A stretch of DNA of 64,000 nucleotides from Candidatus Iainarchaeum sp. (GTDB lineage Archaea > B1Sed10-29 > WALL01): the NCBI GenBank assembly GCA_021162685.1, contig JAGGYF010000028.1, positions 9,088-73,087 of the forward strand, read 5' to 3'. Made by a program: the position numbers and the translations under genes. The notes beneath the pieces are model-generated. The model saw only the letters and a program-made list of their open reading frames with translations, did not search any database and was not told the origin of the DNA. Positions within the stretch are counted from its first letter, which is position 1. Every line of letters starts with the position of its first letter. Below, piece after piece: positions 3,342 to 64,000 of the stretch.

Positions 3342-3843
3342 GGGTGATAGTGTGATAAGCATAGATAAGGTAACAGTGAACATTGGTGTTGGAGCATCTG
3401 GTGAGCCACTGGAGAAGGCAGAAAAGTTACTGGAAAAACTATGCAATCAGAAGCCGATAAGGACACTCAGTAAGAGCAGAATTCCATCATGGGGCATAAG
3501 AAAGAAACAGCCCATTGGTGTAAAGGTTACACTGAGAGGAAAGAAGGCGCTTGAATTCTTAAATAAAGCAATTGAGGCAAAGGACAGAACCCTAAAGAGA
3601 AGCCAATTTGATGAGAATGGAAACTTCGCTTTTGGTATTTCAGAATATATTGACCTTCCTGGAGTAAAGTACGACCCAGAGATCGGTATATTTGGATTTG
3701 ATGTATGTGTAAGCCTGAAAAAGAGGGGGTATAGGATAAAACGTAGAAAGAGGGAGAAGAAAAAGATTCCTTCTAATCACAAGATAACAAAAGAAGAAGC
3801 AATTGAATGGGTTGAGAAAAACCTTAACATAAAGGTGAGATGA
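3334..3843 (+). CDS. rpl5: 50S ribosomal protein uL5
   Basis: KVTVNIGVG; IGVKVTLRG; [12 protein letters not shown]. Confidence 0.97.
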
Positions 3844-4404: not shown

Positions 4405-4947
4405 ATGGATATGGTCTTGGCTGCTGAGATAACAAAAGAGATTGAAATTCCAGACGGAGTAAATATTACTATTGAGGATAGTAAGATCACAGTTAGTGGG
4501 CCGAAGGGAACACTAACAAAAACGTTCAAACTTGGGAAAGCTTCTATTACAGTTGATGGAAAGAAGGCTATCATCTCAGCAAAGTTTCCAAGAAGAAAAG
4601 ATAAAGCGATGGTTGGAACGATTGCTGCCCACATAAAAAACATGATAAAAGGAGTAACAGAAGGATTTGAGTATAAATTGAAGGTACATTATACACACTT
4701 CCCTGTTACTGTAAGTGTAGAAGGAGACAAGGTGCTAATCAAAAATTTCTTGGGAGAAAAGCATCCACGCATTGCAAAGATTGTTGGGAATGCAAAAGTA
4801 GATGTAAAAGGACAAGACATAACAATCACTGGCATAGACATAGAAGAGGTAAGTCAAACTGCAGCTAACCTTGTACTAAAAACAAATGTTGGTAGGAGAG
4901 ACATCAGAGTATTCAAGGATGGTATCTTTTTGGTATCCAAAGGGTGA
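4405..4947 (+). CDS. rpl6: 50S ribosomal protein uL6
   Basis: HIKNMIKGVTEGFEYKL; NFLGEK; DIRVFKDGI. Confidence 0.97.
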   Translation: MDMVLAAEITKEIEIPDGVNITIEDSKITVSGPKGTLTKTFKLGKASITVDGKKAIISAKFPRRKDKAMVGTIAAHIKNMIKGVTEGFEYKLKVHYTHFPVTVSVEGDKVLIKNFLGEKHPRIAKIVGNAKVDVKGQDITITGIDIEEVSQTAANLVLKTNVGRRDIRVFKDGIFLVSKG

Positions 4948-5291
4948 TATTGATGGAAAAGAAAAAACCCAGTTTCAAACGGCAATATTCATCGTATAAG
5001 AAGAGGGGGAAGGTACAGACTAGTTGGAGGAAACCACGTGGAATAGATAGCAAGCAGAGGAAACACAAAAAAGCCAAAGGGGCTCACCCGAGAGTGGGAT
5101 ATGGAAGCCCAAGAGTCACAAGAGGAATGCACCCAAAAGGAAAACACGAGGTACTTGTGAGAAATATGAAGGATGTTGAATCCCTAAATAAAGATGTTTT
5201 GGTTAGGATCTCTGCCACAGTAGGTGAGAAGAAGAGGAAAGAGATCATAGCAATATGTGAAAAGAAAGGTATAGAGGTAATCAACAGGTGA
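4944..5291 (+). CDS. rpl32e: 50S ribosomal protein eL32
   Basis: WRKPRGIDSKQR; GYGSP. Confidence 0.96.
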   Translation: MILMEKKKPSFKRQYSSYKKRGKVQTSWRKPRGIDSKQRKHKKAKGAHPRVGYGSPRVTRGMHPKGKHEVLVRNMKDVESLNKDVLVRISATVGEKKRKEIIAICEKKGIEVINR

Positions 5292-13736: not shown

Positions 13737-16499
13737 ATGAAAAAAGCCTTAGCAATCCTCTTGTTGGTTTGTGCTGCAGCAGCACTTCCAGACCTAGCAA
13801 TAGAACGTTTTTCTCATGAGCTAGGTGAAGATTTTACAGTAAGCTTTACTGCTGTAATTACAAACAAAGGGACTAACTCAACAGAATCCTGTATAATGGC
13901 TTTTTCCCAGGATGAAGAATGGGCAAATAATAAAATAATAACTATTGGCGCTCTTGAACCAGGCCAGTCCCAAAAAATCAACTGGCAATGGGAGTACTAT
14001 GAGCCAGGTGAAAAAAAGCCAGGCATTTTTGTTGACGCATTTAATCCTGAATGCCAATGCTATCAAGGACCTGGTCATGCTGGAAGCATTGAAGAAGAAA
14101 ACGAGGAAAACAATGTCGCTTATCTGAGTTTTGAACTTGAAGCAGAGAATAAGCCGCCAGTAGCGATACTTGCTGTTCCAGTAAGTGTTTGCTTAGAAGG
14201 AGGAGAATGCACTCCTCCTTGCTCAGTTGGCAAGCCATGCAGGTTTGATTGCTCGCAAAGCTACGACCCTGACGGCTTTATTAGCTGTTGGAGCATTGAA
14301 TTCGGTGATGGAACAGCCCAAGCGTCAGAATGCGCAGCAGAAAAAGAAAACAAGCCTGGCGTGATCGAGCACAGCTACACTAAACCAGGAATCTACGAAG
14401 TCAAACTTACTGTCACTGATAACAAGGGAGCTAGTGGTTCAGCTACCGCAGGAATACAGGTCGGTGAAGTCACCAACCAGCCACCAGTAGCAAAAATAAG
14501 GCAAGTGGGCGACTGCTATGCTTCCCAAAACTGTAATTTTGACGGGTCAAACTCTTATGATGCTGATGGGAAAATAGTGAAGTTTACTGTTGACTTTGGT
14601 GATGGTGAAACCATTTCCTCAGAAGGCAGTCCAGCAGGGTTCGGGCATTCTTATTCAAGGCCCGGCACTTACGGAGTAACCCTCACCGTATTTGATGACA
14701 AAGGAGAAAAAGGATACGATAAAATTCTTGTCGAAGTTGAAGAATCCCCACTAGAAGAAGGCGTAGTGGAACTAGCAAAATGCCTTGGAGAAAAAAGTGT
14801 CCTTTACACGAATGATGTCTGTCCATACTGCATAAAACAAAAAAGGCTTTTTGGAAACGCTTACCAGTACTTAACTGTCATGGACTGCGGCATTGACCTC
14901 TCCTTATGCAAAGAAGTGAAAGGTGTACCGACTTGGGAGATAAATGGAGTTAAATACACTGGTTACAAGTCCCTTGAAGAATTAAAGCAATTGAGTGGGT
15001 GTGGGGTTCCTGTTGAGGGATTGTATGCAAAAATCGGGGAGGAGTTTACCCTCTCAATAAACCAGCCAGTAAAAATAGTAGACTATATTGACTCCCATGC
15101 AAATCCATTGAAAATCACGCTACTAAGCATCAACCCGATCTGCCACCCTAAAGAACCGTGTCCCACTGTTATTCCTTATGCCCAAGTAAAAGCAGAGTTT
15201 AGTGGAGAAACCGAAGTGCGAAAGATTACTACTGGAAGTGAAATAAATTTATTTGGGGTTGTATTGCGCACCATTAGCGTTGACAACATAGCACCGGGGT
15301 CAGTAACGCTTGTTGTCAAAAAGCCAGGAGTTATGTACTGCGAGCCAAACGTGGAATACCATTTTACCAACAAGTGCAAGTGTCCAGAAGGAACAAACTT
15401 GGTGTGGTTAAGCCGCTCTGTTTTTGTCTGCAAGAAAGAAGAGATTGTCCATGCGCGGCTGGGTCAAGCCTTTGAACTAAAGCCCAAGCAAATAGCGAAA
15501 CTAATGGATTATAGAGTCTTGACAATGCGTTTGGACAGCATTGTTTCTTCAGAAAACAAGAAAGCGGCTATTATCACTGTATGGCCAACATATGAGAGAG
15601 TCACCTTGGTGAAAGAGGAACCAATAACAGAAAAAGCAACAATGAGGCCTGTGACAGCCACCGCAGGCAAGGTAGTGACAGGTGTAAAAGTAGTACCAAG
15701 TATTACCAAGCCTGTTGAATCCCCACCAATTGTTCCCAGGCAATACCAAGTTTTAGAAGGAGAGTCAGTTAACGTGTTTGGAGTTAGGATGATGGTTAAA
15801 GAATTAACTGAAAGGTCTGCAGTATTTGTGATAACAAAGCAGACACCTTGGACTTCATGCGACCAAGCATGCAAGCAGAAGGGTTATGCAGGAGGACACT
15901 GCTCGTCAGCATGTACAGGAGTTAGCATCGGAGAGGAGTTCTGTCCACAGCCAGTATTTGAAGCCAAAGAAGAGACACCCCCTCTTCCTCCAGTGCTGAG
16001 TTGCTGCTGCCAGCCAGAAGAAGAAACAATAAAAATTGTTATTCACAAGGGGTGGAACTTGTTCTCGATGCCTGGTGAAATAAGACCTGTATCAGAAAAG
16101 TGTGACAGCAGGAATTGGAGGGTTTTTGAGTATAACAGGGAAACAAGAAAATTTGAGGCAGTCAAATGGCCTGAGATTGGCAAGGCTTATTGGCTTTATG
16201 CTGACAAGCCCTGCACTGCAGAAGTGAGAATATCAAAACCTGTTTTGCTGGAAGAACTTGAGGGTATTTTGCCTGGTTGGAACCTCGTGCCAGTAGTTCC
16301 TGATATGATTGGAAAATCCCTTGAAGAATTAAGTGATTGTACTGGGCTGAAGGTTTACACATACGATACCAGCAGCAGGAAGTGGATAAAAGTGGATAAA
16401 ATAACAGAAGAATTCTATGGAAGGGGTCTGGCAGTAAAATCAGAGCTCAAATGCTCTTTTAACACACTGCCTTCCATTCCCCCTTTCCCAGAGGAGTGA
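13737..16499 (+). CDS. Large secreted multidomain surface protein (CARDB, 2x PKD, thioredoxin-like, Cys-rich, GWNL repeats)
   Basis: Signal peptide; IEEENEENN; SYDPDG..FGDG..HSY..PG.Y.V.LTV.D twice; CPYC..KQK..FG..GVPTW; GWNLFS/GWNLVP. Confidence 0.8.
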   Translation: MKKALAILLLVCAAAALPDLAIERFSHELGEDFTVSFTAVITNKGTNSTESCIMAFSQDEEWANNKIITIGALEPGQSQKINWQWEYYEPGEKKPGIFVDAFNPECQCYQGPGHAGSIEEENEENNVAYLSFELEAENKPPVAILAVPVSVCLEGGECTPPCSVGKPCRFDCSQSYDPDGFISCWSIEFGDGTAQASECAAEKENKPGVIEHSYTKPGIYEVKLTVTDNKGASGSATAGIQVGEVTNQPPVAKIRQVGDCYASQNCNFDGSNSYDADGKIVKFTVDFGDGETISSEGSPAGFGHSYSRPGTYGVTLTVFDDKGEKGYDKILVEVEESPLEEGVVELAKCLGEKSVLYTNDVCPYCIKQKRLFGNAYQYLTVMDCGIDLSLCKEVKGVPTWEINGVKYTGYKSLEELKQLSGCGVPVEGLYAKIGEEFTLSINQPVKIVDYIDSHANPLKITLLSINPICHPKEPCPTVIPYAQVKAEFSGETEVRKITTGSEINLFGVVLRTISVDNIAPGSVTLVVKKPGVMYCEPNVEYHFTNKCKCPEGTNLVWLSRSVFVCKKEEIVHARLGQAFELKPKQIAKLMDYRVLTMRLDSIVSSENKKAAIITVWPTYERVTLVKEEPITEKATMRPVTATAGKVVTGVKVVPSITKPVESPPIVPRQYQVLEGESVNVFGVRMMVKELTERSAVFVITKQTPWTSCDQACKQKGYAGGHCSSACTGVSIGEEFCPQPVFEAKEETPPLPPVLSCCCQPEEETIKIVIHKGWNLFSMPGEIRPVSEKCDSRNWRVFEYNRETRKFEAVKWPEIGKAYWLYADKPCTAEVRISKPVLLEELEGILPGWNLVPVVPDMIGKSLEELSDCTGLKVYTYDTSSRKWIKVDKITEEFYGRGLAVKSELKCSFNTLPSIPPFPEE

Positions 16500-22155: not shown

Positions 22156-22538
22156 AGGGTATATATGTACTCATTATAGATATTTCAAAGGATGTAACAA
22201 TCAGAGTTGGCTCGCTTGGTAATATGCTTTTCAAAAAAGGTACGTATGCATATGTTGGATCTGCCCAAAACAATGTTGAAAAGAGGATTAGAAGGCACAT
22301 GAATAAGAAGAAGAAATTATTCTGGCACATTGATTATCTTCTGAAAGAACCAGGGATTAGAATAAGAAGGGTGTTATACAAAAAAGCACCAAAAACAGAG
22401 GAATGCAGAACAGCATCTGTTATCAGCAAAAGAGGGGAGGCAATTCCACAATTCGGATGCTCTGATTGTAAATGCAATAGCCATCTTTTTAAGATCACAG
22501 AGATGCCACTAAGAGGGTTTAGAGAGGTGATTACCTGA
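22152..22538 (+). CDS. DUF123 / GIY-YIG-like nuclease
   Basis: [32 protein letters not shown]. Confidence 0.85.
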
Positions 22539-23296
22539 ATCCTATTTACGGTCCTGTACCCTCATGGAGACTTGGAGTTTCACTTGGAGTAGACCCTGTA
22601 TGCAAAATGCCAAAAATTTGCTCATTTGATTGTATCTATTGTCAGTTGGGAAGAACGGTCGTAAAAACGACAAAAAGGGAGAAATTTGTTGAAGCGGAGA
22701 TTGTTCGCAGAGAGTTGAAGAAGGCATTACGTATTGTAACACCAGACGTTATAACATTCTCTGGGGTATCAGAACCAACACTTGCATCAAATATTTCAGA
22801 CATCGTGAATGTAATAAAAGAGGAAACCGATATCCCTGTTGCTATTCTAACAAATGCTTCCCTTATATACAAAAAGGAGGTTATGGACGACCTCATGCAT
22901 TTTGATATTGTATGTGCGAAACTTGATGCTCCAAACCAAAAGATATTTGAGCAGGTAAACAGACCATCATACGGAATAAAAATTGATGATATTATCAACG
23001 GAATAAAAGAATTTAGAAAAGGATTCACGGGGAAACTCGCACTACAAATTATGTTAGTTAACGAAAATAAACCATACGTGAAAGAAATTGCTAACATAGC
23101 AAGGGATATAAAACCTGATGAGATTCAACTTGATACTCCTCTTAGACCCTGTCCTGTACCTGCCCTTCCAGAGGAGGAGATGTATGAGGCAAAGCAATGC
23201 TTTGATGGATTGAATGTGATAATGGTGTATGATAGGAAAAAACCAGAGGCAAAAGCAATAGATAAGTATGAGACACACCTGAGGAGACCCACATGA
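22535..23296 (+). CDS. Radical SAM protein (probable CTG start)
   Basis: [17 protein letters not shown]; CSFDCIYC; FSGVSEPTL. Confidence 0.85.
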
Positions 23297-24177
23297 TAAA
23301 AATCACAGTAGTTTCTGGAAAGGGAGGAGTTGGAAAGAGTAGCATAGCAGCATCCATGGCACTGGTCTTGTCAAAAAACAGAGATATTGTTGCTGTTGAT
23401 TGTGATGTTGATGCACCAAACCTTGGGCTGTTGCTTGGTGTAAAAAAGGAGGGCTTCTCATACAAAGAAGTAGGTACAAAAGAGAAAGCGTCTCTCATAG
23501 AAGATAGGTGTATAAGATGTAGAAAATGCGTGGATATCTGTGTGTTTTCAGCTATCTCATGGGATAACCTACCGATATTTGATAAATATCTGTGTGAGGG
23601 ATGCGGAGCGTGCCAACTTGTATGTCCTGTTGATGCAATTGAACTCATAAAAGTGCAGAATGCATTTATTGGATTTACTGACACACAGTATGGGTTCCCT
23701 GTTGTTGGTGGTCAGCTAAAACCAGGAGAATCTGGGTCTGGTGATGTAGTAACATTAGTAAAGGAAAAGGCAGAGGAGATAGCTAACAAAAGAGGGATTG
23801 AGACAATGATTATAGACTCTGCAGCAGGTATTGGTTGTCCTGTGATTGCCTCAGTAACGGGTTCAGATTACGTTGTCGCTGTCACAGAACCAACACCCGC
23901 AGCATTTAGTGACCTTAAGAGGGTTTTGGAAGTTGTTGAACATTTCAACATACCATATGGGATAATTATCAATACATGGAACACCAATCCAGCGTTTACA
24001 GAAAAGATTGAGAAATTCGCTTCTGAGAACGAAATAACGTTACTTGGAAAAATCCCATATGACAAAGCCTTTATTGATGCCTTGGTTCAGCTGATGCCTG
24101 TTGTTGCTTACGATAAGAGGTTTAAAAAATTGTTTAAAAGTATTCTAGAAAAAACTCTGGCAGAGGTAGAGAAATGA
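23293..24177 (+). CDS. Second MinD-like P-loop ATPase with 2x[4Fe-4S] insert
   Basis: SGKGGVGKS; DCDVDAPNL; CIRCRKC; CEGCGAC; GIGCPVIAS. Confidence 0.9.
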   Translation: MIKITVVSGKGGVGKSSIAASMALVLSKNRDIVAVDCDVDAPNLGLLLGVKKEGFSYKEVGTKEKASLIEDRCIRCRKCVDICVFSAISWDNLPIFDKYLCEGCGACQLVCPVDAIELIKVQNAFIGFTDTQYGFPVVGGQLKPGESGSGDVVTLVKEKAEEIANKRGIETMIIDSAAGIGCPVIASVTGSDYVVAVTEPTPAAFSDLKRVLEVVEHFNIPYGIIINTWNTNPAFTEKIEKFASENEITLLGKIPYDKAFIDALVQLMPVVAYDKRFKKLFKSILEKTLAEVEK

Positions 24178-31925: not shown

Positions 31926-32044
31926 GCGGGGGTGCCGGAGCCTCCCTCGTGCCTTCATTGGCACGAAGGCTCAAGTGGTCAAACGGGCAGGATTGAGGGT
32001 CCTGTGGCTTAGTGCCTGCGCGAGTTCGAAGCTCGTCCCCCGCA
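31926..32044 (+). tRNA. tRNA-Leu(GAG) with D-loop intron (~31944-31974)
   Basis: GCGGGGG/CCCCCGC acceptor; CAGGA-TTGAGGG-TCCTG; variable arm; BHB-shaped hairpin insert in D arm. Confidence 0.9.
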
Positions 32045-32241
32045 CTGACCAAATTACATATGGTCGTTCGTGGTGGGATACAAGATCCCACTTACAGCAG
32101 GAGGGGGTGTGGAATCCGAGGGTTTCCAGGGGGAACCTGGGTTCCCCATAAAGGACGCTCTGACCAAATTACATATGGTCGTTCGTGGTGTGGCATAAAG
32201 CCACACTATTAGAGGGGGATGTGCCCCCATAAAGGACGCTC
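32045..32241 (+). repeat. tRNA-linked structured repeat element, tandem copies B1 (32045-32159) and B2 (32160-32241)
   Basis: Both start CTGACCAAATTACATATGGTCGTTCGTGGTG and end CCCCATAAAGGACGCT with differing internal hairpins. Confidence 0.9.
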
Positions 32242-59205: not shown

Positions 59206-59246
59206 ATAACATATTTTTATATGATAATCAACACAATAGAGTAGGC

Positions 59247-59377
59247 AGCCCCGTAGTCTAGTGGCCAAGGATGCAGGCCTTTGGAGCCTGCGACGGCGGT
59301 TCGAAAATGAGGAACCTCCAGCGGGTTCCTCATCCACCTCCAGCAACCACTGGAGTTCGAAAATCCGCCCGGGGCTA
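59247..59377 (+). tRNA. tRNA-Gln(TTG) with 58-nt T-loop intron (59306-59363)
   Basis: AGCCCCG/CGGGGCT; CAGGC-CTTTGGA-GCCTG; BHB removal restores GGCGG-TTCGAAT-CCGCC. Confidence 0.92.
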
Positions 59378-60412: not shown

Positions 60413-60562
60413 ATGGCAGAATTCAAACCCACATGTCCTAAATGCTTTATAGAAAAGGGGTATACTGTCCTTCTAAGAAAGGATGGGGAAGTATTCCAGT
60501 GTCCGAACAATCCAAAACATAGATTCGTCTTGGATAACGATGGATATCTAAAACCTATCTAG
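60413..60562 (+). CDS. Small zinc-ribbon protein
   Basis: MAEFKPTCPKC..FQCPNNPKH; TATATA box upstream. Confidence 0.6.
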   Translation: MAEFKPTCPKCFIEKGYTVLLRKDGEVFQCPNNPKHRFVLDNDGYLKPI

Positions 60563-61127
60563 CCTCCTTCTCCTTTTGCTTCTCTTTTCTAATCGCTATC
60601 TCATGTGCTACCCATTCGTCCCTTGGTGTTGTTGGTGGTCTTTCAACATAGTCTGCATTTGTCATCTTGAATAGAAGGCCCTCTGGTGTTTCTATCATCC
60701 TTCCTATCATACTGTACAATGATAATGTGTCATAATTGTTCTGAATCAGCCTAACAAAGACCTTTTTATATGGCTCCTGTTCCTCACCAAATTCATTTTC
60801 ATATCCTGTTTCCAACTCAAAAGTTGTTTCAACAACAAAATCTGCACCCTCAACATTATATCTAGCAAGTATCCTTGTCTTCATGGATGTTGAAAAATAC
60901 TGATCCACCGCAGATACTGGTTTGGATATCTCAGAGATGATGTCTCCCATCCTGTAATCCGAGAGATGAAGAACAATAGGTTTATCACTTACAACCTCTA
61001 CAAGACGACCAATAAGTTGTTTCTGTTTTAGCAAGGGCAATTTGCATTCACCTATATCAATACGAATAGGGCGCTCTCTCTTCTCCTCTTTTCTCCTCCA
61101 CAAACTAAGAAATTTACCCATAGGCAT
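60555..61127 (-). CDS. Hypothetical protein
   Basis: 190-aa ORF with normal codon usage; TTTAAATA upstream. Confidence 0.6.
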   Translation of the reverse strand: MPMGKFLSLWRRKEEKRERPIRIDIGECKLPLLKQKQLIGRLVEVVSDKPIVLHLSDYRMGDIISEISKPVSAVDQYFSTSMKTRILARYNVEGADFVVETTFELETGYENEFGEEQEPYKKVFVRLIQNNYDTLSLYSMIGRMIETPEGLLFKMTNADYVERPPTTPRDEWVAHEIAIRKEKQKEKEAR

Positions 61128-61198
61128 TATAATAAAGAGGAATCATTATTTAAACATTCCCCAAAACCCTTTTATGTCTGTTTGTACTAAAAGGTATT

Positions 61199-61350
61199 GG
61201 TGTTGAAAGCGGGTCTGACGCGCGAGAGGCAAAACGTTTACGTAGCGTCCGTCCCATTGGGGGGAACGCAGCGCCCGACGGAACCGAAAGGGAGTTGCTT
61301 GCGTTGGACGCACCTTAAGCTCCGACGCGATGAGGCCCGCCAACATAACT
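61199..61350 (+). ncRNA. Unidentified GC-rich structured RNA enclosed by a BHB motif
   Basis: GC-rich island in AT-rich intergenic DNA; terminal helix GCGGGTCT/AGGCCCGC; GGT-GTTG-AAA ... CAAC-ATA-ACT BHB; TATA-like TTTTATGT ~61170. Confidence 0.7.
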
Positions 61351-61360
61351 TCTTATCTGT

Positions 61361-62137
61361 GTGAGTATAATGATAGGTATTGTCTTTTCTGAGAAGGATA
61401 TGGCAGCAAATACCATGTTTCCGTTCTTTATTGAACATGGTTTCCAGGAATACAGAAGTAACATCTGGAAGATGGATGATATATTCCTAATAAGAATAGG
61501 GCAGGACATCATCTTTCCAAAGGAACTTGATGTATTCGCAGAACAACTCAACCTAGAGTATATTGTCATGGCATCAAGACATAAATCTAAGTCAGAAAAA
61601 CCAACGTTAACTGTGCATGCCACAGGAAACTTTGGAGATGCTGACTTTGGTGGAAGACCAAAAGAACTTCAGTTAACAATCGCAAATCCCATGCGTAATG
61701 TATATCTTGAGATGAGAAACTGCACTCTTGATTACACGGTTTCAAGAGAGGCAACACATCATGGTCCAACAGAATTCAATGTGCCACTATTCTTTGCTGA
61801 ACTTGGAAGTTCTGAAAAGCAATGGAAAGACGAAGAAGCAGCATCCTTCCTTGTTGATTGCATCATAAAAGGGATAAGGAAAAATAAAAAGGCAGAAGTA
61901 GCCATAGCATTTGGAGGAGGACATTACTGCCCAAAGTTCTCCGAGATGAATGAAATCGCATTTGGCCATATTGCTGCAAAATATGCTGTTGACCTACTTG
62001 ATGAAGCCCTTGTAAAGCAGATGGTTGACAAAACATATGAACATGTTGATTTTGCCATTTTGGATGAAAAAGGGTTGAAAGGAAGGCAAAAGACGCATAT
62101 AAAGTCTCTATTGTCTGAGATTGGTATAGAATATTAG
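61361..62137 (+). CDS. dtdA: D-aminoacyl-tRNA deacylase (archaeal DTD2)
   Basis: ASRH.S; LTVHATGN; EATHHGPT; ELGS; GGGHY; GHI. Confidence 0.92.
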   Translation: MSIMIGIVFSEKDMAANTMFPFFIEHGFQEYRSNIWKMDDIFLIRIGQDIIFPKELDVFAEQLNLEYIVMASRHKSKSEKPTLTVHATGNFGDADFGGRPKELQLTIANPMRNVYLEMRNCTLDYTVSREATHHGPTEFNVPLFFAELGSSEKQWKDEEAASFLVDCIIKGIRKNKKAEVAIAFGGGHYCPKFSEMNEIAFGHIAAKYAVDLLDEALVKQMVDKTYEHVDFAILDEKGLKGRQKTHIKSLLSEIGIEY

Positions 62138-63747: not shown

Positions 63748-63852
63748 GCAGGGGTACCAAAGCGGTCTAATGGGCTGGATTCAGGTAGAGGGTAGCCTCT
63801 GGAAACGTCCAGTGGCTTAGTGCCTTCGGGGGTTCGAATCCCCTCCCCTGCA
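63748..63852 (+). tRNA. tRNA-Leu(CAG) with canonical 37/38 intron (63786-63806)
   Basis: GCAGGGG/CCCCTGC; CTGGA-TTCAGG[intron]G-TCCAG; variable arm identical to Leu(GAG); GTTCGAATC. Confidence 0.93.
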
Positions 63853-64000
63853 CTGACCAAATTACATATGGTCGCTCACAGCTCCTTTCTTTTTAGAAAA
63901 AAGAAAGTAGTTGGCAGTCAAAGAAAAACTAATTTTCTCTTCTCTCCGAGAAGCATATTACTGTGTGCTTTCAGTCCTGCTATTAGGGGGGTGTGGAATC
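63853..64000 (+). repeat. tRNA-linked structured repeat element, copy C (runs off window)
   Basis: CTGACCAAATTACATATGGTCG immediately after discriminator; ends TATTAGGGGGGTGTGGAATC matching 32102-32116. Confidence 0.85.

Follow-up and report, generated by a model that had tools for sequence, protein, structure and literature searches.

[quoted passage not shown] The question was raised by a preliminary description of the 64,000-nt stretch analysed here (the window), which had taken these positions for a standalone RNA of about 139 nt enclosed by a BHB and predicted to be circular. The genome to which the window belongs comprises 1.11 Mb in 45 contigs (98.4% complete, GC 0.40), and all of the listed sequencing runs with DNA of the region are labelled hydrothermal vent metagenome; a look for runs recorded as RNA gave none that contains the region.

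The element at 61199-61350 on the + strand is a sharp GC island. Its GC content is 0.61-0.63 in 100-nt windows, compared with 0.29-0.46 around it and 0.40 in the genome, which bears out the earlier statement that it is GC-rich, and this value is in the same range as that of the genome's tRNA, rRNA, SRP and RNase P islands. The + strand folds to -67.4 kcal/mol (z -3.76), and none of 200 dinucleotide shuffles equalled this value; the - strand reached a z of only -0.97 and was equalled by 33 of 200 shuffles. This strand asymmetry fits a structure formed at the RNA level, in which 9 of the 53 predicted pairs are G-U pairs. A terminal stem (6 bp, an AAA bulge and 8 bp) was present in all folds (37, 60 and 70-75 C). 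The interior folded at 37 C into a multi-branch junction with partners other than those described before, and at 70-75 C into a more rod-like form with GCGUCC/GGACGC and a CGCG-type helix. All of the words quoted earlier for the interior are present in the DNA (CGCG at 61219, 61221 and 61326; GCGTCC at 61245; GGACGC at 61306; AACGCA at 61265; TGCGTT at 61300; the GAAA-loop hairpin word CCGAAAGG at 61284). Among the pairings proposed for them, GCGUCC/GGACGC was recovered in the 70-75 C fold, but the AACGCA/UGCGUU helix was absent from both the 37 C and the 70-75 C folds. In addition, a strain variant (run X6) carries a 1-nt deletion at 61258 that frameshifts all three ORFs crossing the element. 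Because this deletion breaks every such ORF, the element is non-coding, and its interpretation as coding sequence is ruled out. In run X1, the best DNA run, no listed contig spans 61198-61387, and such a hole proves nothing. These results show that this is a real, structured RNA-like element on the + strand, and its best reading is a lineage-specific, structured non-coding RNA.

To place the element in its setting, the signals and genes around it were collected:

60555-61127, - strand: ORFan gene of 190 aa, divergent from the element, with a TTTAAA box at 61149-61154

61170-61175, + strand: TATA-like hexamer TTTTAT, predicted promoter of the element, 29 nt upstream of 61199

61370-62137, + strand: dtd, a D-aminoacyl-tRNA deacylase gene of the archaeal DTD2 type (PF04414, E 1.1e-64)

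The hexamer at 61170 corresponds to the upstream TATA-like box of the preliminary description. Hexamers of the same set start at -32 for the 5S gene, at -29 to -27 for the SRP gene and at -30/-29 for tRNA-Gln. The start of transcription is accordingly placed, from the position of the box, at a predicted site around 61199, give or take 3 nt. Across the genome, 243 of 1295 long ORFs have a TATA hexamer that starts at -33 to -26, compared with 60 of 1295 in a control window. This peak 26-33 nt before ATG starts points to many leaderless mRNAs in the genome and suggests that a large share of its mRNAs are leaderless. From 61176 to 61369, that is, through to the dtd ATG, we found no TATA hexamer, no T-run and no terminator. 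Judged by these missing signals only, dtd is probably transcribed from the promoter of the element, and the simplest reading of the signals present and absent would be one transcript that runs from about 61199 through the element into dtd. If so, the element would be a 171-nt structured leader and no stand-alone gene. The term 'standalone' is doubtful because the dtd AUG lies 19 nt 3' of the end of the element (61350), with neither a TATA hexamer nor a T-run between them. The start codon of dtd agrees with the starts of its relatives in an alignment, and the gene is followed by an HD-domain gene and then by a coiled-coil gene.

On the other side of the element, the palindromic TTTAAA at 61149-61154 lies 27 nt from the ATG of the ORFan gene on the other strand. 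Nine of the 13 strain differences in this gene fall on third codon positions; thus, it is a real gene under purifying selection. Its protein has 0 matches in Pfam or NCBIfam, no homologue in 30 other genomes of the phylum or in a set of 5.8 billion proteins, no usable match in a protein atlas and no relative in viral contigs, and its AlphaFold model is unusable (mean pLDDT 38.9). Relatives of the order have a small zinc-ribbon-like gene immediately next to dtd, while in four members of the family about 770 nt separate the two genes. The slot of one relative, G002, holds an unrelated 230-aa ORF, which shows no detectable relatedness to the ORFan (E 0.56), and a 72-nt spacer, without any such RNA. 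The slot is empty or differently filled in the relatives, so that the place taken by the element and the ORFan gene is variable and lineage-specific.

Homologues of the element were searched for at several levels. Blastn found none in 60 relatives, and a single-sequence covariance model found none in 60 and 150 relatives; with laxer filters on 12 genomes of the order, the best E values of this model were 2.2 and 8.2, and with the filters off on 27 dtd loci of relatives, which come from 26 of the 30 relative genomes searched, the best was 0.46. There is no second copy in the own genome by blastn or nhmmer, and there are no flanking direct repeats. The element was absent from phage and plasmid records and was not found by exact-word scans of genome contigs and viral contigs. 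The four metagenome loci found via the dtd protein are distant (33-46% identity) and were compared with the neighbouring proteins by tblastn. Rfam gave no match in the element when the whole window was searched at gathering scores; at E<=10, the region 61100-61450 yielded two chance-level matches in the flanks and none in the element, so no standard family matched the linear sequence. The linear sequence also had no match to the tRNA model RF00005 at E<=10, and ARAGORN reported no tRNA in it, in agreement with the earlier statement that the element lies within no tRNA or rRNA.

The BHB that was proposed to enclose this RNA consists of the following parts:

61199-61201, + strand: 5' strand of the outer helix, GGU, pairing with 61348-61350 (G-U, G-C, U-A) in the strict BHB scan

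61202-61205, + strand: 5' strand of the central 4-bp helix, GUUG, pairing with 61341-61344

61206-61208, + strand: 5' bulge AAA, unpaired in all folds, with a predicted EndA cut after 61207

61209-61216, + strand: 5' strand of the 8-bp inner helix, pairing with 61333-61340 in every fold

61333-61340, + strand: 3' strand of the inner helix, from reading and fold

61341-61344, + strand: 3' strand of the central helix, CAAC, from reading and fold

61345-61347, + strand: 3' bulge AUA of the BHB drawing, with a predicted cut after 61346

61348-61350, + strand: 3' strand of the outer helix, ACU, from reading and the strict BHB scan

61208-61346, + strand: putative excised or circularised segment of 139 nt with a GC-rich branched or rod-like core, placed by the BHB geometry

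The outer, central and inner helices and both 3-nt bulges can thus be read where they had been described. In the strict scan, the two bulges lie on opposite strands with the 4-bp helix between them, each 3' of its strand of the central helix, and this strand order is the same as that of the strict BHBs of the tRNA-Asp, Ser(GCU), Leu(CAA), Glu(CUC) and Ile(UAU) introns of the genome. The motif encloses the GC island within 5-7 nt of the island's edges, and two strain variants are identical across both of its strands. For the tRNA-Asp intron of the genome, the scan puts the cuts after the second bulge base, which makes 61208-61346, the interval given earlier for the excised segment, the right one for BHB cutting. 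Thus, the motif resembles the strict hBHBh' tRNA introns of this genome in its 3-nt bulges, its 4-bp central helix and its cuts after the second bulge base. Unlike them, it lies outside a tRNA, and its outer helix has 3 bp whereas their anticodon-stem helix has 5-8 bp; its inner helix has 8 bp, compared with 2-5 bp in the tRNA introns. The insert measures 139 nt, and the tRNA introns called by ARAGORN include one of 119 nt, a spurious call of 1302 nt aside. The genome encodes both an EndA (PF01974, 112.7 bits, in a 171-aa frame on contig 35) and an RtcB (PF01139, 590.2 bits), the latter on the same contig as the element.

Although the BHB can be drawn with the geometry of the genome's tRNA introns, it is not the minimum-energy fold. 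At 37, 60 and 75 C, that fold extends the central helix to 6 bp and keeps the 5' bulge only, with 61345-61346 paired. When forced, the BHB conformer comes out less stable by 3.5 kcal/mol (37 C), 2.5 kcal/mol (60 C) and 1.9 kcal/mol (75 C), so the enclosing BHB of the preliminary description stands as a drawing and fails as the preferred structure. By these computed energies, the cost would be small enough for capture by a protein, yet the BHB is not the predicted fold. The outer helix has only 3 bp, with a terminal G-U pair, and would stand at the very 5' end of the transcript. A longer processing stem formed by the flanks was looked for, and their pairing was at chance level (82 of 300 shuffles equal). 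The BHB is accordingly described here as possible and not as predicted.

The explanation that we favour, while holding it to be somewhat less than probable, is that the element is a BHB intron in the mRNA 5' UTR of dtd, excised by EndA and joined and circularised by RtcB. Under this proposal, transcription would begin from the element's own TATA box at about 61199, and the element would form the first ~150 nt of an RNA that reads on into dtd and the genes behind it. The 14-bp terminal stem would refold, for little energy, into a canonical helix-bulge-helix-bulge-helix; EndA would capture this BHB conformer and cut after 61207 and after 61346. RtcB would then ligate the exons, so that 32 nt of leader remain ahead of the dtd AUG, including a weak Shine-Dalgarno-like word (GUGA) 5 nt upstream of this codon, and would close the 139-nt insert into a circle. 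On this reading, the intron would be tolerated in the leader because it is spliced out. If true, this would be a third case of a BHB intron outside tRNA and rRNA, much larger than the others and in a DPANN lineage dense in unusual tRNA introns, and it would mean that the tRNA-splicing machinery hosts sizeable structured RNAs in mRNA leaders, a possible route to new circular RNAs. A further-reaching version, which we consider unlikely, is that this DPANN archaeon acquired the 139-nt RNA as a BHB intron in the leader of a housekeeping mRNA and that the tRNA-splicing machinery frees it as a stable circle with its own function, perhaps in partnership with the ORFan protein; it would then represent a new class of EndA-dependent circular RNA gene riding on an mRNA.

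The closest known system is HVO_1309 of Haloferax volcanii. According to the parts of the report by Schwarz et al. 2020 (PMC7714728) that are drawn on here, this gene has a 46-nt BHB intron in a 192-nt 5' UTR; the circular form of the intron was detected by circRNA-seq, and the intron was cleaved in vitro. It is conserved among haloarchaea, and HVO_1309 is down-regulated under EndA repression. Within those same parts, BHB introns outside tRNA and rRNA are known only from the cbf5 mRNA of Crenarchaeota and from the HVO_1309 leader (PMC7714728). As far as that account goes, the insert of either locus is BHB-flanked and placed upstream of the start codon of a protein gene but downstream of the transcription start (a predicted one here), with EndA as the enzyme, and the products predicted here are likewise an RNA circle and an mRNA whose leader is shortened. 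Unlike the 46-nt intron described there, the insert at the present locus is 139 nt long, GC-rich, highly structured, restricted to one lineage and predicted from sequence, and its outer helix, at the predicted 5' end of the RNA, is limited to 3 bp. Two other systems, again as they appear in the sections of the sources used, are the SRP RNA of Thermoproteus, which is permuted, BHB-processed and circularised (PMC4731332), and the circles of pre-16S and pre-23S rRNA (PMC7714728, PMC12558985); in both, EndA and a ligase produce the circle from a BHB formed by the flanks. To judge by these sections, the present element resembles both in that its BHB is formed by the flanks of a structured RNA. They concern recognisable families, whereas this RNA matches no family, and SRP, 5S and RNase P RNAs are intact elsewhere in the genome.

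A serious competitor, to which we give a real chance while still thinking it short of probable, is a linear RNA, either a stable orphan non-coding RNA or a structured leader that is not processed. The BHB drawing would then be fortuitous, and the ends of the RNA would come from the transcription start and ordinary nucleases. The minimum-energy fold at all three temperatures, with its 6-bp extension and no second bulge, is what this explanation expects, and the promoter geometry, GC content and fold resemble those of stable RNA genes. BHB-like motifs are also abundant by chance: the genome contains 7226 strict ones, 514 of them with an inner helix of at least 8 bp, and motifs of this kind enclose 5 of 135 GC islands, compared with 360 of 20000 random placements. 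Among 564 trials that already had a 6-bp extension behind a 3-nt bulge, 37 could be drawn as a BHB. On the other side, random flanks round the fixed inner stem produced a full strict BHB in only 202 of 200000 trials, the motif is located at the edges of the island, the organism uses BHB splicing heavily (D-loop and T-loop introns included), and no terminator follows the element. The strict scan itself recovered a BHB near the ARAGORN intron, within a position filter, in 5 of the 16 intron-bearing tRNAs examined and missed the other 11; thus, it is no proven detector. A filter for the context of promoter, BHB and ORF was passed by 71 of the 7226 motifs and by 130 of 20000 random pairs, and a genome-wide search for further cases of this context with a GC-rich insert gave none that is convincing. 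The other GC-rich match of this kind, on contig 26, looks like chance, and it adjoins a protein-coding region or probably lies within one.

GC-rich orphan RNAs of AT-rich hyperthermophiles were reportedly described by Klein, Misulovin and Eddy in 2002. The HgcC, HgcE, HgcF and HgcG class consists of GC-rich, structured orphan non-coding RNAs of AT-rich hyperthermophiles with no assigned function. The element is like this class in being a structured GC island in the AT-rich genome of a vent organism, and unlike it in that it has no match to those Rfam families and stands directly before a gene without its own promoter. If the BHB were coincidental, the element would be one more orphan structured RNA of a thermophile, which has annotation value but is ordinary.

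Less credible, and unlikely in our judgement, is the view that the element is a functionless remnant of foreign or mobile DNA, which arrived with the ORFan gene and is GC-rich because of its source and not because of selection. In its favour, none of the searches turned up a relative of either the element or the 190-aa gene, relatives differ in what they have between the zinc-ribbon-like gene and dtd, and other footprints of mobile DNA are found near tRNA genes in the genome. Against it stand the strand-specific fold with its G-U pairs, the well-placed promoter, and the absence of flanking direct repeats and of a second copy in the genome. The strain differences also speak against it. Over 115 nt of the element, the variant from run X6 differs at three sites, each of them within the small CCC/GGG hairpin (61253-61258); one change is the 1-nt deletion, and another turns a C-G pair into U-G and so keeps the pair. 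When the strain differences were combined, the element had 3 in 205 nt, compared with 15 in 356 nt of the flanking coding DNA (Fisher p 0.085); such a deficit in the element would be suggestive and no more.

We regard as still less likely a cis-regulatory 5' leader of the dtd operon that senses a ligand, a protein or temperature and acts without excision. The position of the element, downstream of the one promoter that could be detected and 19 nt ahead of the dtd AUG, would suit such a role, as would a very stable multi-branch fold for which 37 C and 70-75 C give competing conformations. Conservation is usual for regulatory leaders of conserved genes, whereas none of the 27 dtd loci of relatives has anything similar upstream and no homologue was found in 150 genomes. 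No riboswitch or leader family of Rfam matched the element at E<=10, which, together with the result at the 27 dtd loci, led to the rejection of a known family of this type. In addition, there is no terminator and no clear helix that would sequester a ribosome-binding site, and the pairing of the flanks is at chance level.

Finally, a divergent, permuted or fragmentary form of a known RNA (5S, SRP, RNase P, tRNA, or an H/ACA or C/D guide) is highly improbable: although the size and GC content are in range, the stem is followed by an ACA triplet and has a CUGA word on one side opposite a GAUGA word on the other, and the genome has a fibrillarin and a weak Gar1 match, full-length 5S (101.2 bits, model 1-120), SRP (148.7 bits, model 1-317) and RNase P (105.5 bits, model 1-288) RNAs are encoded on other contigs of the same genome, and the linear sequence has no partial Rfam match, tRNA included, at E<=10 and no ARAGORN call. 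Because these three RNAs are full length elsewhere, the element is no divergent or permuted piece of them, and this part of the preliminary description was rejected. An archaeal H/ACA guide was rejected as well: in the pocket search, the rRNA operon yielded 5 hits (best 13 bp), no better than the 3-21 hits (best 14-17 bp) of five shuffled rRNAs, the ACA lies inside the terminal helix and the interior is multi-branched. The facing CUGA and GAUGA words, read by hand, form neither a kink-turn nor a C/D guide, with a bulge of only 2 nt and a mis-registered stem.

Several tRNA-linked features were observed elsewhere in the window and the genome. In the window, the tRNA-Gln(UUG) gene at 59245-59375 has an intron of about 58 nt in its T-loop and is missed by default ARAGORN and by the Rfam gathering score; the tRNA-Leu(CAG) gene at 63750-63855 has a 21-nt anticodon-loop intron and is found only by ARAGORN with introns allowed; and the tRNA-Leu(GAG) gene at 31926-32046 has a D-loop insert. 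A conserved element of about 45 nt follows both tRNA-Leu(CAG) and tRNA-Leu(GAG) and also precedes several tRNA-Ser and tRNA-His genes. With introns allowed, ARAGORN reported 42 tRNAs in the genome, and the 1302-nt 'intron' on contig 5 is a false call inside the rRNA operon. This search found no tRNA for Lys, Cys, Arg(UCU) or Ser(UGA) in the own genome, and for this reason more disrupted tRNA genes probably remain unannotated. At positions 1-190 of contig 7, an apparent tRNA-Arg(CCU) has a long anticodon-loop insert in which AUGAUGA-type box C words were seen by eye. In other archaea the tRNA-Trp intron contains a C/D guide RNA, and by analogy the insert on contig 7 may represent such an intron-borne guide.

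Also noted, in each case next to tRNA genes, was a family of GC-rich elements, 60-100 nt in length. They have in common the word AGCGUC, a hairpin of a G-run with a C-run and their 3' part, and the family has no Rfam match. Copies are located as follows:

Contig 12, 4616-4720 and 22461-22560: GC-rich AGCGUC family copies

Contig 32, 23566-23635: GC-rich AGCGUC family copy

Contig 3, 4781-5070: GC-rich AGCGUC family copy

Contig 20, 2516-2685: GC-rich AGCGUC family copy

Contig 31, 16001-16088: GC-rich AGCGUC family copy

Contig 34, 1-85: GC-rich AGCGUC family copy

Contig 14, 13971-14225: GC-rich AGCGUC family copy

Two copies of this family stand behind a duplicated promoter and the first 13-16 nt of the adjacent tRNA-Pro gene. 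In addition, tRNA-Ala(GGC) (contig 20, 8921-9080) has on either side a partly palindromic repeat of about 27 nt, which also precedes tRNA-Ala(CGC) (contig 13, about 3636-3675).
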